This document shows positions 26,401-32,400 of a DNA stretch of 64,000 nt, piece after piece. Position numbers: made by a program. Numbering within the stretch: position 1 is the first letter of the stretch; the number at the start of each line of letters is the position of its first letter. The DNA comes from Oligoflexales bacterium (GTDB taxonomy: Bacteria; Bdellovibrionota_B; Oligoflexia; Oligoflexales; JAPPIL01), in contig OZ244057.1 of NCBI GenBank assembly GCA_965215515.1, positions 1,504,001 through 1,568,000 of the forward strand, given 5' to 3'.

Positions 26401-29400
26401 CGGTAGCGCAGGAGGTTGCGCACGGCACGATCGTGTAGCACTCCTTCGATAGTGAAGCGTGCGTCCTTGTCGCCGCACGGCGCGTTGCTTTGCACCGCGT
26501 CGATAACTTCGGCTAGGCTACGTTGGTTAGCTGCTAGTATGTTACGAGCCACAGCAAAAAAATTAGCCACAATCTGCTGGTTGTTTTTTTTCTCGTGATA
26601 GAGGTAGCTGAAGTGCAGTTTATTGAGCATGCTTTCTTGCAAACCTTGTCCGCTGGTAACTATGTCAGCGAGCACAGCACGGGAATCGATGTCGATACGA
26701 GAGGTGTTCGCCGTCACCAAGCCTAGCAACAGCTCGTTGTTGCGGTCGTAGTTGTAGGTGAACGAGGCAACCTCCTCGCGTTCTTCGACGACGTTGACAC
26801 GGGTGGTTTCGCCGCTACTTTTTTGTGCGTTGCGGCTGAAGTCGAGCCAACTGCCGCTCAGTTCTCGGCCGAGCAATCCTCGTAGATGTGGAGTGAGGGC
26901 TTTATCGCCTGCAGTGAAAGCGATACGTCCTTTTTTCACTACATCGAGTAGCAGGTCGGAGCTCTTTTCCACGATGGCAATACCTCGGTAAGCTGTGGGA
27001 TCGGAGCGGAAGGTAGCGATATCTTGGCTGGCGGAAAGATCTCCGAGCAGTGCCTTGCCTAGAGCTTGACGCGCGGCGGGATAGTCGAGGTCGTAGATAA
27101 AATCGTAAACAAGTTTTTTCTCTTGAGTGCGCGCAATCTGGGCGGTAATCAGCTCGCTACTCAGCAGTTTATCGAACATACTGGTATTGATGAAGGTCAA
27201 GCCAAGTGTCAGTTTGGCTTCCAGTGCGAAGTCGCGGTTATCGGCGGTGGCTACGCGATAATTGACGTAGGTGCGTTCCCCCATTCGTGCCAGCACTTTC
27301 AGCGAGGACCTAAACAGCGAACTCAGCAGCACGTGGGTATTGGCTTTGACGGCTGCCCCGACTGCGCTGAGGCGCGGCCCGACCTTGACCAACACTGTCT
27401 TTTCTCCAACGCTGTTGATTTCTGCTCCCGCGGGTAGGGTGGCACGCAATCGTTCGGCGGTGAGAGGCAGGGAGATAATCTTGTAAATTTTGCGGATATA
27501 TTGTTTGAGGTCGATCGTTGCGTCTGTTGTCTCGCGGTGTGCCGCGAGGGAGAGCACGTCGGGGATGACGATGCGGTACTGTTTGGTTGCGGCGACCTTG
27601 CCGTTCGCTTCGATAGCGACGTTGATGGGGCCGAGCACTGCCGCCAGCGGTAGCATCCACGGCACTGCCACACCCGCTTCTAGGGTCAATTCGTGCCACT
27701 TCTCGTCTCCGCTGTGTCCGTGTTTATCGACATCGCGCAGCAGTTCTGTGCGTGTCAGGAAACGGTGACCCTTGACGTATGCGATTTCAAATGCTCCTAG
27801 CTTGTGCTTGCCAGTTGCGTCGCCCGTCAGCGTCGCGCGTATCTTTTCCTTCCACTGTCCCAGATTTTGCAGAAAATCTCGGTAGACTCCTTTTTCCGTC
27901 AGAATAACGATGTCGGTGGCAGCGAGGCGCGGTGCGAACGCGAGCAGGGTGAGCACCAGCAGGGAAAATTTAGTGAAACGTGCCATCATCAGCGCTCCTC
28001 ATTCCTTTTCAATAAAACGCAAGTGCATTTTTTTTGCTTTATCCCACGTGAAGCCACTGCCTAGCTGGCGTTGTTGCCAGTCGAGATAGAGGTCGTTGAA
28101 CAGAATTTTCAAGCTACGGAGGAACATCCCTGATTGGCCAAGCAGACGTGGCGTGTCTGTCTTGGAGCAAAAAATCTGCACCACGAAGGCGGTTTCGCTA
28201 TCCACTGGAGCGAGGGTACAGCCGTCGAGGCGGAGATGTCGGTTGAGGATGCGTTGCAACGTTACCACCAGCTCCTCTTGTTGCTGTCGTGGGGTGGCGG
28301 TCAGGGATGGGGTTACAGCCAACCCCACCAGCAACACCGCGGCTCGTAGATGCCTTCTCGTCATGGCTACCTCTTAGCACAAATCATCGATGCGGCGTGT
28401 GCTAGCAGTTTTTAGAGTATTTGTCAAGTTATAAAGTTTTCGCCCCAAGAACCGATGATTAGGGTGAGAGGCTTGTCAAATCGCCGCAAACTTGGCACAA
28501 TATGGGGTTAGAATGGCGATCGTGGGTGTGTGCAAGTGCTGAGGGAGGTGGACTGCAATGGTCGTCACTTATGCGATACCCGTGCTTTTTCTCTTCGTCT
28601 TCGTAGAATACGTCTTCTGCAAGTTGCGTAAGCGCGGGCGTTATCTCGGCATCGACACGCTGGCTAATCTTTCGGCGGGTATCCTATCGCGCCTGACCAT
28701 TCCCTTCACCAAAGTCCTCTCTGTCGGTGCGTACGTCCTCATCTACGAGAACTACCGTCTGTTCACGGTTTCCGATTTGCCGATGCCGTGGTTTTGTGTG
28801 GCGATGGTGTTTTTCTTTTTCGCCGTCGATTTTTGTTATTATGTCAACCATCGTGTTTCGCATCGGGTCAACTTTCTGTGGGGCACGCACATTGTGCACC
28901 ATCAGAGTGAGAACTTCAATTTCAGTGTTGCTTTTCGACAGTCGGCGCTCGGTTCTTTTTTTACCTTTGTCTTTGATTTGCCGTTAGCTTTGCTGGGTTT
29001 ATCGCCTTGGTGGTTTGGGTTATTCTACGGCATCAATCTCCTCTACCAGTTTTTGATTCACACGGAGACGGTGGGCAAGCTTGGCTTTTGGGAAATTTTC
29101 ATGAACACCCCTTCGCATCACCGTGTCCATCACGGCCGCGACCCCAAATATATCGACAAGAACTACGCTGGTGTGTTCATCATCTGGGACAAGTGGCTGG
29201 GGACGTTTCAGGCGGAGGAGGAAACACCCACCTATGGGGTGACCACACCGCCGCAGAACTTCAACCCTGTCACCGCCAACTATCACTTCTTCCAGATTCT
29301 GTGGCGGGAGGGCAAGAAGCGCAGACGTTTTGCTGACAAAGTAGCCTTGTGGGTTGCCCCTCCTGAAGCGGTGGAGTCCCAGTCCGTGCCACAGTCCAAT

Positions 29401-32400
29401 TTTCGAGCGGTCTACGCCCGCAACTTTCATTTACCGCACCTACTACCTGTGTCGCTCTTTTATGTTTTGGTGACGTTGTTGACCTTTGCCATGCTGCTCT
29501 TCTCCGAGAACATCGAGCCTATTTATTTGGTGGCGGTGGGGTTGATACTGATGACCGACCTGCCATTCCGCCTGGTTATCAACAGCTTGGTGAGACGCTG
29601 CCCGTCACAGCCTGATCCTCCATAATCTTGTGCGATGTACTGCACGCGCATAGGGATAGGACTGGAGACGATTCAAGCGGAAAGCTTCAACAGCCCGCGG
29701 CGGTGCGCTAAAGCGTGGCAAGCACGCTTGTCGACCGCCGCAATGAGTGCGTCGTTGAGACTTACCGTCTCCTCACTGACCAGTTTGAGCAGACTATCGT
29801 TGAGCAGAATGTTGCCCTTGACACGGTGCGCGATCATGTGTGCAGTGAGTTGCTGCGTTCTGCCAGTTTTGATCATCGCCGCCGCTTCGCTGGAAGCAAT
29901 AAGCACCTCCCAAGCAGCTACCCGCCCGCCGTCTTTTGTCCGTAACAACGTCTGGCAAATAACACCGCGCAAAGTGTTCGCTAGCAAGTGACGCACCTGA
30001 CTCTGATGAGCGGGCGTGAATTGATTGATGATGCCATCGATTGCCAAGACACTGTTGCGAGCAGGCATCATGCTGAAAACCAACCGCCCCGCCTCGGCGC
30101 ACTTCAGTACCATCGCCATCGCCTCCGCCTCACGGATCTCATCCGTGCAAATAATATCAGGGTCTTCCCGCAATGCCGCCCGCAGCCCATCCAACACCGA
30201 GTGTGTATGCGTGCCAATCTCACGTTGACGAATGAGAGAATTTTTGGGAGTGTGCACAAATTCAATCTGCTCTTCGATCGCCAGCAGATGCGCCTTGCGA
30301 GTAGTGTTGATGATGTCTACCATCGCCGCCATCGTCGTCGATCGCCCACTCCCCGCAGAACCGCTGAGAATAACCAGGCCCTTCGATAAATAACAAAATT
30401 TTTTGACAATATCAGGCGCTGCCAACTCCTCCAAAGTGCTGAGCACAGCGGGCACATAACGCAACACCGCACCGATACCATGCAAATCTTTCAAAACATT
30501 AACCCGAAACCTCCCCACACCCCGCAACTCATAAGTAAAATCAATGTCACCGCTCCGTTCCAGCCTCGCCGCTTCCGTCGCGGGAACAAGAGGATCGAGC
30601 CAGCCCCGTAAAACTTCAGAGGTGATTTTTTCACTGGCGTTGACCTTCTCCATCTGCCCTGCAATACGCATCATAACGGGACAATCACAACTCAAATGCA
30701 AATCACTTGCACGCTTCGCTTTCATCTCCTGCAAAAGCTTGTCGAGAGCATTACTACCATCGCTAACCGTGCTAGCACTCGACAACACACGCCTGGAAGA
30801 TGCCGATTCTTCTTCCTCCTCCGACACCGCGGGGGCGGCAGACGCATCCTGGCCATCGTCAGTAGCCGCCTCGCGCGCAGCTACTACCCTGTCGGGCTGC
30901 GTGATCACCTTCACCGCGGGGGCGGTAGACGCATCCTGGCCATCGTCAGCAGCCGCTCCGCGCTCAGCCACTATCCTGTCGGGCTGCGTGGTCACCTTAT
31001 CCATCGCAGTACGCACGCCTTCCGCTTCCTCACCCTTCTCTGGGAGAGGGTCAGGCTCGCCAGCACGCACAGTATCCTGACCTGCAGCAGGGGAACTCGC
31101 CGCCGTATCGTCCTGCTGCACGAGTAAGGACTGAAGATCAGCCTTCGCAGACGCACCTCCCTGAGCAGGGGCAGGCTGATCTGCCGCCGCATCCCTCTCT
31201 GGTGCAGTCGCCCCCCCGTCACGAGGCGCAGAAAAATCTACCTGCAATAGCTCGCCGCTGGGAGCAGCACTCTTCTCCTGACTGGCTGGTGTCGCGGGCG
31301 ATGCTGCCGCGTTCGGCGATTGCTCAGCACTCGGCAAGGATGTCTTACCACCGATACTAGCCGTAGGGTCGATGAACATGTCACTCATATCATCATCCAC
31401 GCCTTCCCGCGCGGCATCATGCTCGACACCACCTCTCGCCTCAGTCATAGTGGATTTAGGCAAAAACTGCTTACGATCAAGTTCGTAAAGTGCCCTCCCA
31501 CTGGGAGGGTAAATGTTCATCTGACGTAAATCAGGCAAACCGATGCAATCTACCTCACCAAATCCCAAGATATTAACCCTGCGGACACCACGCCGAAGGT
31601 GTGACAAACCATCCTCATGCGAAAAAACGCTGATGAATAACTGATCCATATCAGCACCAGTCGGAGGATGAATGGACTTCGATCTGCTCGCACCAGCAGC
31701 GGTGAGAAAATACGGACGCTTGCCTTCCTCAATAACAATACGATGTGCCCTCAACTCGCTAGCTTCAGTGACGGCCCTCTCCATCAAGCTCACGTGTGCA
31801 CCCCCGCCTGCGCGTATCGGCCACAACAACCACTTTACTGAGTGCTCAACAGGAACTTCCTGCCGCGCAGCAACCCTCTTTCCTTGTCGGCACTACTGTG
31901 ATACACCCGCCCAGCGAGGGTAGGGGGGGAAAGAGAAGAGGGAGGAGATAAACAAAGTTGACAGCCCAGCGACTACTGAACAAGGTACGAGAGTGCAAAG
32001 ATGCCTTCACCCAACGCTGTACAGCAGCCGACAGAGCGCAAACCTTAGAGGAGGTGCGCATTGCCTTCCTAGGACGCAAAGGACAACTGGCACACCTGCG
32101 AGCAAAAATTACCACCCTGACAGGCGAAGAACGCAAACAATTCGGAGCGGCAGTCAACGCGCTGCAAAGATACAGCGAGCAACAAATCAACGCACGACGA
32201 CACACCCTGCAACGCAAAGCAATCGAAACTAAACTGCAAAAAGAACGTGCCGACATCGACCTGCCCGTCCTCGATCGAGACGAAAATGGCTCGCTGCACC
32301 CCGTAACGCTGATGCGACAAAAACTGCAAGATACCTTCGCTAAACTCGGTTTCAACACCCTGGAAGGGCCCGAAATAGAATACGAAGATTTTAACTTCAA

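Follow-up and report, generated by a model that had tools for sequence, protein, structure and literature searches.

An AGMO-like membrane di-iron oxygenase with an Arg/Glu pair at the presumed cofactor site in a reduced Oligoflexales genome

The closest described counterpart of the protein analysed here is animal alkylglycerol monooxygenase (AGMO/TMEM195, EC 1.14.16.5), an FA_hydroxylase-fold enzyme with an eight-His di-iron motif that has never been purified and for which we found no solved structure. Within the same superfamily, the yeast sphingolipid alpha-hydroxylase Scs7p uses a fused cytochrome b5 domain. According to the excerpted text of PMC3304488, human AGMO is inactivated by mutation of His201, Asp233, Asn235, Tyr236, Trp243, Asp244 or Gln162, whereas mutation of Glu137, which interacts with tetrahydrobiopterin, raises the Km for this cofactor 18-fold, with the E137A variant still active at the higher Km; the animal box-1 consensus appears there as H-E-[ILV]-N-I-[FILM]-W-A-[AG]-H. 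As for bacteria, the literature searched, as available in excerpts, describes no enzyme with AGMO activity, and the excerpts of a 2026 paper state that AGMO is not known to function in bacteria, which argues against an ether-lipid role for a bacterial homologue. So does the sole bacterial homologue with a tested reaction in the excerpts of PMC6667630 and PMC7911779, PRUB680 of Pseudoalteromonas rubra, a cycloprodigiosin synthase termed an 'AGMO-like enzyme' that cyclises prodigiosin by C-H activation and whose substrate is thus a pigment, not a glycerolipid. The genome-wide survey's note had stated that the AGMO review PMC7911779 discusses no bacterial enzyme; this needs amending, as the excerpts of that review mention the P. 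rubra prodigiosin cyclase.

Here we describe a gene for an AGMO-like protein of 355 aa (P0001) that lies in a 64-kb window of an Oligoflexales bacterium genome (Table 1). Its frame opens with ATG, carries GGAGG 8-12 nt 5' of the start and is the sole long one, the opposite strand being rich in stops. Pfam FA_hydroxylase (PF04116) matches residues 83-216 over the full profile (1-132) at E 8.4e-26 and 91.4 bits (cut-off 31), so that frame and domain agree with the gene, length and family assigned earlier. The His boxes are also those listed in the survey's note, and the motif HX3-4H, HX2-3HH, HX2-3HH is satisfied by H98/H102, H111/H114/H115 and H188/H191/H192, assigning the protein to the FA_hydroxylase superfamily with a predicted eight-His iron site.

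Table 1. Features of the locus, in window coordinates
Feature	Position	Strand	Basis
AGMO-like membrane di-iron oxygenase gene, P0001, 355 aa (stop codon included)	28558..29625	+	ORF, Pfam, eukaryotic AGMO kinship, AF2 model
His box 1, H98-R-V-S-H102	28849..28863	+	H98 and H102 invariant in 127 sequences
Arg103 codon, aligned with human AGMO Glu137 (tetrahydrobiopterin-interacting)	28864..28866	+	consensus comparison, BLASTP, clade alignment
His box 2, H111-I-V-H114-H115	28888..28902	+	invariant in 127 sequences
His box 3, H187-H188-R-V-H191-H192	29116..29133	+	H188/H191/H192 invariant in 127 sequences
Glu270 codon in P-P-E motif	29365..29367	+	clade-invariant; co-varies with Arg103
Divergent intergenic region, promoter-like site	28365..28557	.	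consensus scan and conservation
P0130, 121 aa, conserved divergent neighbour	27999..28364	-	synteny
P0129, 661 aa, lineage-specific conserved neighbour	26004..27989	-	synteny

The residues on which human AGMO depends have counterparts in the bacterial protein when human positions are mapped from the published motif with constant offsets. His201, Trp243 and Asp244, conserved across animal family members, correspond to H168, W210 and D211, and Gln162, Asp233, Asn235 and Tyr236, specifically essential in the human enzyme, to Q128, D200, N202 and Y203. Across 127 sequences all eight His, H168, N202 and D211 are invariant, D200 is nearly so, W210 is found in 121 and position 128 is Gln in 109; the protein's own clade has either Gln or Arg at 128 and either Tyr or Phe at 203. 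The AF2 model has a pLDDT of 95.3; among solved structures of its superfamily it matches Scs7p alone (PDB 4zr0), weakly (Z 5.9, rmsd 5.3 over 179 residues, model 27-279, 13% identity) and among unrelated helical structures of similar Z. The gene is present in a single copy in a genome of 2.18 Mb and is retained in all three other genomes of the family; its retention in a reduced genome speaks for an ether-lipid function.

Kinship with eukaryotic AGMO domains is specific at the sequence level. Residues 6-238 align with the AGMO domain of a beetle gene model (P0332, which itself scores 58.9 bits for AGMP_C) at 41% identity over 237 aa (E 5e-48), and a chytrid protein aligns at 43% over 239 aa, in line with the 40-47% given in the survey's note for vertebrate AGMO. 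The distribution of relatives reported there is likewise reproduced, with 26 unnamed proteins at 54-87% followed by Bacteroidota proteins at 43-53% that carry the name 'sterol desaturase family protein' or, in JGI annotation, 'alkylglycerol monooxygenase'. In a careful tree, from which animal sterol and sphingolipid enzymes are absent, an AGMO-like group of eukaryotes and the P0001 clade is split at 99/98 from paralogues of about 300 aa from the same order; together with the 41-43% identities, this bears out its place on the AGMO-like branch within the FA_hydroxylase family and suggests that the protein is closer to AGMO than to these fatty-acid-hydroxylase paralogues. Its placement relative to the eukaryotic AGMO clade is unresolved in this tree: the P0001 clade stands on the longest internal stem (length 1.0) above an unresolved backbone, and although an AU test does not reject joining it with the eukaryotes (p 0.846, the constrained tree being the likelier), such joining of two long branches is an expected artefact.

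The presumed cofactor site sets the protein apart from the animal enzyme. Its counterpart of the animal consensus reads H-R-V-N-F-L-W-G-T-H, agreeing at 6 of 10 positions, and the residue after the second box-1 His is Arg103 instead of Glu; BLASTP sets the Glu of both the beetle and chytrid proteins opposite it. Arg103 and Glu270 are invariant in a 19-sequence clade alignment, and in a profile-anchored alignment, whose position-270 column is lost on plain MAFFT realignment, this position is acidic in 69 of 95 Arg-type sequences vs none of 183 Glu-type ones, being Gly in Glu-type bacterial relatives. At the Glu137 position itself, many bacterial relatives carry Gln, Thr, Val or Arg; of the 21 genes most tightly linked to YhhN (see below), 17 have Gln. 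Of 20 short paralogues that fall outside the AGMO-like group, 18 have Glu there. Since the residue varies in this way, neither its presence nor its loss settles cofactor use, and it is a weak marker among bacteria.

At the C-terminus, Pfam AGMP_C (PF24858) finds no match in the protein at E <= 0.05. The chain is 50-90 aa shorter than Glu-type and animal relatives (human AGMO has 445 aa), and both features weigh against ether-lipid cleavage. Bacterial representatives give weak, mostly sub-threshold AGMP_C matches in 37 of 124 cases, in Arg and Glu types alike; because the model has two C-terminal helices (292-314 and 322-346), a diverged AGMP_C remnant is possible there. With Arg103 in place of Glu137, the missing AGMP_C match and a long-branch lineage on an unresolved backbone, the 'animal-type' label of the survey's note is not supported.

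That label came with the claim that the genome holds the pterin cofactor genes that the enzyme needs, and the genes are indeed there. We matched GTP cyclohydrolase I (245.9 bits), PCD (103.8 bits in Pfam; 115.9 in NCBIfam, cut-off 108) and a 567-aa aromatic amino acid hydroxylase (NF010657, 604 bits vs 346), a tetrahydropterin-using hydroxylase system as described earlier, from which a tetrahydropterin pool is plausible. The PTPS-family protein named alongside them is recognisable in Pfam (48.7 bits) but falls under both NCBIfam cut-offs. The need of P0001 for these genes does not follow. An HPPD gene adjoins that of the hydroxylase, whose role is therefore probably Phe/Tyr breakdown; PCD serves the hydroxylase, and many bacteria carry GTP cyclohydrolase I and PTPS/QueD-type genes, as control genomes show. 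Phe/Tyr breakdown thus explains the pterin genes, which point to a possible pool, not to its use by P0001, and so count against the ether-lipid reading. An orthodox, tetrahydrobiopterin-dependent AGMO of the animal type, supplied by the genes with which this genome makes and recycles pterin, is for us improbable: the eukaryotic identities, the AU result, the matched pterin genes and the activity that human E137A retains at a raised Km (in the excerpts) would all accommodate it, but a clade-invariant Arg paired with Glu270 at the cofactor position, the lack of an AGMP_C match, the weak PTPS-like protein, the ordinary roles of the pterin genes and the expected long-branch artefact on that backbone speak against it.

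Elsewhere in the subfamily, genomic context is more telling. In 25 of 79 loci, mainly of Bacteroidota, the next gene downstream, on the same strand, is a YhhN gene (147.9 bits); 3 further loci have one within 2.1 kb. The YhhN-family protein TMEM86B of rat is described in excerpted sources as a lysoplasmalogenase, as is a Legionella YhhN protein (PMC9052158, in excerpt), and the title of that paper extends the activity to YhhN of M. tuberculosis. Three relatives (P0190, P0254, P0327) are fused with alpha/beta-hydrolase or phospholipase/carboxylesterase domains. An ether-lipid role for these other family members thereby gains support from predicted gene neighbours and domain architecture. The YhhN-paired proteins, mainly from Bacteroidota, share 40-54% identity and the catalytic residues with P0001 but differ from it in length (about 400-420 aa) and in having Gly at 270 and, at the Glu137 position, either Glu or Gln. 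At the present locus and in the whole genome (93.9% complete) no YhhN is found, and P0001 has neither a lipase or hydrolase fusion nor such a gene adjoining it; both absences stand against an ether-lipid role. The earlier proposal that the organism breaks down ether lipids is accordingly backed by AGMO-like kinship but lacks here the YhhN neighbour or hydrolase fusion seen in other bacterial members.

What adjoins the gene instead is a divergent pair, P0129 and P0130, its only conserved neighbours, and these within one genus, again counting against ether-lipid cleavage. Both have hydrophobic N-termini, judged by eye to be signal peptides, neither matches Pfam, and both are syntenic in the window and in the two other same-genus genomes (P0130 at 68-75% identity). 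P0129 has just 20 homologues, all 51-100% identical, and a poor AF2 model (pLDDT 48.7); the link of the pair to the oxygenase is missing at the paralogue in genome G046, as it is in the second genus of the family. The intergenic region between them and P0001 contains blocks that the two same-genus genomes conserve (mean column identity 80%). It also holds a promoter-like site on the + strand (28473-28501; TTGTCA, 17-nt spacer, CACAAT), a weak one since the consensus scan returned 2 sites vs 1.3 expected.

This neighbourhood makes it quite conceivable, at somewhat over a third of our expectation, that P0001 hydroxylates a membrane or envelope lipid of its own cell (for example an aminolipid, a hydrocarbon chain or a lipid resembling sphingolipids), perhaps linked to P0129/P0130, and does not cleave ether lipids. 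Such a role fits the sole NCBIfam match, ornithine-lipid hydroxylase OlsE, although its 54 bits fall far under the cut-off of 475. It also fits the very large family, with 10,550 representatives at E <= 0.001 and up to 9 matches apiece in related genomes, breadth that suggests many substrates and so argues against the ether-lipid reading; and it fits Arg103, the shortened C-terminus and the long stem, which separate the clade from the animal enzyme. It sits less well with the retained AGMO-essential residues, with a neighbour link confined to one genus and with the lack of any substrate-pathway gene adjoining P0001. We regard a third role, as a tailoring oxidase of secondary metabolism like PRUB680, as very unlikely. 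PRUB680, bacterial and AGMO-like as P0001 is, and compared here by description only, is encoded apart from its gene cluster (excerpts of PMC6667630 and PMC7911779), so missing clustering is no argument against this role; a genome of just 2.18 Mb and the absence of biosynthetic genes from the window are.

For P0001, a bacterial protein known from sequence alone, we tentatively prefer ether-lipid cleavage, to which we give a little less than an even chance. Most likely, on this reading, it would hydroxylate an alkylglycerol-type lipid, an alkylglycerol or lyso-ether-phospholipid from prey, host or surroundings, on the carbon that adjoins its ether oxygen; the hemiacetal would break down, releasing a fatty aldehyde from the glycerol moiety, and the aldehyde could be oxidised by one of the genome's two aldehyde dehydrogenases (a P5C dehydrogenase and an MdlD-like protein of 354 bits, below the cut-off of 550), which confirm the presence of such dehydrogenases noted earlier. 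An outside substrate is suggested by the ether-lipid synthesis genes, of which a genome search found none that is clear, only a GlcD-like FAD oxidase, with no matches to fatty acyl reductase or Lipid_desat. The electron-supply site would differ from that of animal AGMO, the Arg103/Glu270 pair standing in for Glu137, and it would either bind a tetrahydropterin through a carboxylate that has changed place or rely on a different reductant. Taken further, bacteria would own true ether-lipid-cleaving AGMOs and the P0001 clade would have a rebuilt cofactor site, its pterin-holding carboxylate moved from 103 to 270 and paired with Arg103, using a bacterial tetrahydropterin shared with Phe hydroxylase in a small-genome Oligoflexales-like bacterium that uses the alkylglycerol lipids of its prey or host as food; this fuller scenario we consider unlikely.

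Expressible bacterial relatives could serve work on AGMO structure and mechanism and help to explain natural ether-lipid recycling; for this, P0001 is a poorer candidate than the relatives linked to YhhN or fused to hydrolases. The Arg103/Glu270 pair, set against Glu/Gly, amounts to a naturally occurring exchange of charges where the cofactor is presumed to bind, and bears on whether the electron donor of the family is a pterin.

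The open reading frame of P0001, the AGMO-like (alkylglycerol monooxygenase-like) protein of the window, is a real gene, single-copy in a genome represented by one contig of 2,180,710 bases and 93.9% complete. The Pfam FA_hydroxylase profile is covered in full at 91.4 bits (cut-off 31), the three histidine boxes reported in the genome-wide survey's note are indeed found in the sequence, and the sole NCBIfam match, to the ornithine-lipid hydroxylase OlsE, reaches 54 bits, far short of its cut-off of 475. The AlphaFold model is all-helical (pLDDT 95.3, pTM 0.92); PDB searches gave zero matches both by sequence (E ≤ 1) and, with the model, by Foldseek (E ≤ 0.001), and in the VIA wide structural search the only related entry, yeast Scs7p, aligned over P0001 residues 27-279 with a Z of 5.9, amid unrelated helical rows.

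A word-indexed search with P0001 scored 8,000 candidates and retained 6,551 homologues. The 26 nearest (54-87% identity, 342-368 aa) all carry no protein name, the closest named genome being an Oligoflexales bacterium MAG (85% identity), and are followed by 403-444-aa proteins, nearly all at 43-53% identity and mostly from Cytophagales and other Bacteroidota, which carry the name 'sterol desaturase family protein' or, in JGI annotation, 'alkylglycerol monooxygenase'. An exhaustive search of 50%-identity representatives retrieved 10,550 proteins at E ≤ 0.001, of which 1,305 reach E ≤ 1e-30, with the clade of P0001 contributing only one representative (711 bits; runner-up 277 bits). Across the window's order, 66 of 95 genomes, its own counted, hold some P0001 homologue, with up to 9 matches in some; among these 95 genomes the close type (≥ 57% identity) is confined to the window's own family, where it occurs in all three other genomes, one of them encoding two close-type paralogues at 85% and 58% identity.

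The protein had been called animal-type on the strength of 40-47% identity to vertebrate AGMO, a range compatible with our BLASTP alignments to a chytrid protein (43% over 239 aa, E 8e-58) and a beetle protein (41% over 237 aa, E 5e-48). These two were the eukaryotic proteins recovered by a search of longer homologues (seven proteins, from 623 aa up), the sole source of eukaryotic AGMO domains here; vertebrate AGMO was absent among the top 120 homologues, the 150 representatives and the named clusters. In a language-model atlas, a chordate cluster with AGMP_C ranks ninth for P0001 (score 0.92). Of 124 bacterial representatives, 37 give hits to the AGMO C-terminal domain of Pfam, mostly sub-threshold and in three cases at or above the cut-off, and P0001 itself has no AGMP_C match at E ≤ 0.05. 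The beetle protein, P0332, carries FA_hydroxylase and AGMP_C (58.9 bits) fused to tubulin chaperone D; its public gene model places tubulin-specific chaperone D and AGMO in one protein of 1,488 aa, probably through an annotation merge of two adjoining genes.

In a quick LG+G4 tree the eukaryote pair fell in a set holding bacteria whose AGMO-like gene is linked to a YhhN-family gene, with the clade of P0001 outside that set. A more careful, site-heterogeneous tree (56 rows, bootstraps not wholly settled) separates the AGMO-like group from ~300-aa paralogues at 99/98 and recovers the eukaryote pair (100/96), the YhhN-linked clade (100/99) and the clade of P0001 (100/100), whose stem of 1.0 is the longest, while leaving the backbone inside the AGMO-like group unresolved. 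Joining the clade of P0001 to the eukaryotes was likewise not rejected by the AU test (p 0.846, the constrained tree being 64 log-likelihood units higher), and on both grounds we withdraw the reading of the quick tree that this clade lies far from eukaryotic AGMO. Because of the same unresolved backbone, the 'animal-type' label is not borne out either.

We then consider the residues of the presumed cofactor side. In human AGMO the E137A substitution raises the Km for tetrahydrobiopterin 18-fold, and the account of this motif in Watschinger et al. 2012 (PMC3304488) gives the animal consensus as H-E-[ILV]-N-I-[FILM]-W-A-[AG]-H, with an acidic residue at the Glu137 position in no other animal fatty acid hydroxylase. 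The corresponding box-1 stretch of P0001 reads H102-R103-V-N-F-L-W-G-T-H111; Arg103 is invariant in its clade (19-sequence alignment) and is aligned with Glu in both the beetle and the chytrid proteins, and P0001 also retains counterparts of the other residues that human AGMO requires (Q128, H168, D200, N202, Y203, W210, D211). Across 149 representatives the commonest states at this position are Glu (61) and Arg (56), followed by Thr (9), Val (6) and Gln (5), with 11 sequences having other residues; in one the motif was not found. State changes number at least 3-4 on well-supported branches and 5-22 on the best trees, and 17 of the 21 tightest YhhN-linked genes have Gln; a clean division into Glu and Arg subfamilies is rejected on these two grounds. 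Further, in the short FA_hydroxylase paralogues of the window's order (278-321 aa, loci L116-L140), which fall outside the AGMO-like group, Glu follows the second box-1 His in 18 of 20, and the rule that an acidic residue is exclusive to AGMO therefore fails for bacteria. Given the varied and switching states, the Gln of the YhhN-linked genes and the Glu of the paralogues, Glu is no specific mark of pterin use, and the residue at this position tells less than first seemed.

Only one other position, 270 in a P-P-x-W motif, divides Arg-type from Glu-type sequences (127-sequence alignment). A profile-anchored alignment (355 rows) shows an acidic residue there in 69 of 95 Arg-type sequences and in none of 183 of Glu type, of which 162 have Gly; clustered at 60% identity, the set gives 40/63 vs. 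0/83 (Fisher test, uncorrected for kinship). When 354 sequences were realigned with plain MAFFT the column slipped and the association was lost, to be regained with the profile-anchored alignment, and an independent-pairs test found only 4 pairs on supported branches, too few to reach significance. We read Arg103 and Glu270 as a putative ion pair or, alternatively, as a carboxylate that may have been relocated.

Elsewhere in the family the gene keeps company suggestive of lipid breakdown. Of 79 loci of relatives at 40-54% identity, which are of mainly Bacteroidota origin, 25 have a YhhN-family gene (147.9 bits) immediately 3' on the same strand, three more have one within 2.1 kb and the other 51 have none. 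The two genes are separated by -56 to +1 nt in 21 of the 25 adjacent loci, often overlapping by 1-56 nt, and the larger apparent overlaps in the other four are an artefact of liberal start-codon choice. The hosts are Pedobacter, Daejeonella, Nubsella and Flavobacteriales and Bacteroidia MAGs; since the YhhN-linked genes form one clade, this adjacency represents few independent events. YhhN proteins are described as lysoplasmalogenases for rat in PMC3137066 and for Legionella in PMC9052158, and the title of the latter paper says the same for M. tuberculosis; in our literature search 'YhhN' and 'alkylglycerol monooxygenase' came together only in a mammalian review. The pair is likely a two-gene unit for ether-lipid breakdown; no YhhN was found in the window's own genome. 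Four AGMO-like proteins, P0190 (838 aa), P0254 (647 aa), P0327 (650 aa) and P0229 (535 aa), are fused to alpha/beta-hydrolase, phospholipase/carboxylesterase or, in one case, lipid-binding SRPBCC domains; the partners across the long forms are hydrolases, a beta-lactamase-like domain, SRPBCC, GATase and GBBH-like_N, with no redox-partner fusion among them. An AGMO-YhhN fusion is likewise absent from the seven longer homologues, a weak negative because that set begins at 623 aa.

In the window itself, only the upstream divergent genes for P0130 and P0129 are conserved with that of P0001 in two other genomes of the genus. Both products have hydrophobic N-termini, judged by eye to be signal peptides, and no known Pfam family matches either of them; P0129 has only 20 homologues, all inside the lineage, and a poor model (pLDDT 48.7). 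The linkage does not extend to the second paralogue or to the other genus of the family. Further features are collected in the table, among them an ankyrin/dockerin protein that, with the small genome, hints at contact with eukaryotic cells.

Features of the window, its genome and the compared loci
Feature	Location	Strand	Description
P0001 gene	28558..29625	+	ATG start; GGAGG 8-12 nt upstream; 355 aa; antisense strand stop-rich
P0130 gene	27999..28364	-	121 aa
P0129 gene	26004..27989	-	661 aa
Neighbours of P0001 gene	window		speA, fused nuoC/D, pheS/pheT, PilT-like ATPase, biotin carboxylase (Pfam/NCBIfam)
PilT-family ATPase	29673-31829	-	TIGR01420 331 bits; unmatched N-terminal extension of ~360 aa; convergent with P0001 gene, 47-nt gap
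Dynamin-family GTPase, bacterial	41474-42886	-	Dynamin_N 58.3 bits
Phospholipase-D-like protein	54819-57170	-	784 aa; domain near C-terminal part only, remainder unmatched
Ankyrin/dockerin protein	60829-62463	-	545 aa; ankyrin repeats, dockerin domain, FlgD Ig-like domain
Gene directly downstream of the 58%-identical paralogue (genome G046)	L098:6171-7868	-	565 aa; weak ankyrin-repeat and ElaD/SseL-like matches
Aromatic amino acid hydroxylase	G000:C1:730-734 kb (L093; window's genome)		unusually long, 567 aa; NF010657 604 bits; adjoins HPPD (4-hydroxyphenylpyruvate dioxygenase)
Reductase most like OleD of olefin synthesis	G000:C1:555726-556733 (L144:1327-2334)		368 bits, under cut-off 580
AGMO-like + YhhN loci	L012, L021, L024, L030, L031, L040-L042, L045, L048, L054, L057, L059		gene ~6001-7200, YhhN next
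AGMO-like + YhhN loci, continued	L061-L064, L066, L071, L074-L077, L080, L081		gene ~6001-7200, YhhN next

Besides the aromatic amino acid hydroxylase, the genome encodes PCD, GTP cyclohydrolase I, a two-domain PTPS-like protein with a weak match, and two ALDHs. The survey's note took the pterin genes as those that P0001 needs for its cofactor: all are present, and Phe/Tyr breakdown together with common bacterial pathways accounts for them. A tetrahydropterin pool in this organism is plausible. Genes for ether-lipid synthesis are not evident in the genome; a search for Lipid_desat (PF10520) gave zero matches, as did its control in every genome, so this negative carries no weight.

Reviews of AGMO deal with the animal enzyme alone: the word 'bacteria' does not occur in the IUBMB 2013 review, and the 2021 review (PMC7911779) gives one sentence to a P. 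rubra enzyme. One passage of a 2026 metagenome paper states that AGMO 'is not known to be functional in bacteria', the gene being counted in 239 MAGs. The 'AGMO' of a Myxococcus paper is the motility gene agmO. Together, the data identify P0001 as a membrane oxygenase of AGMO-like type, from a divergent bacterial lineage in which a residue pair on the cofactor side has been rebuilt. It is unlikely that orthodox tetrahydrobiopterin dependence can simply be transferred to it, and cleavage of ether lipids, a tentative assignment, is its single most likely function.
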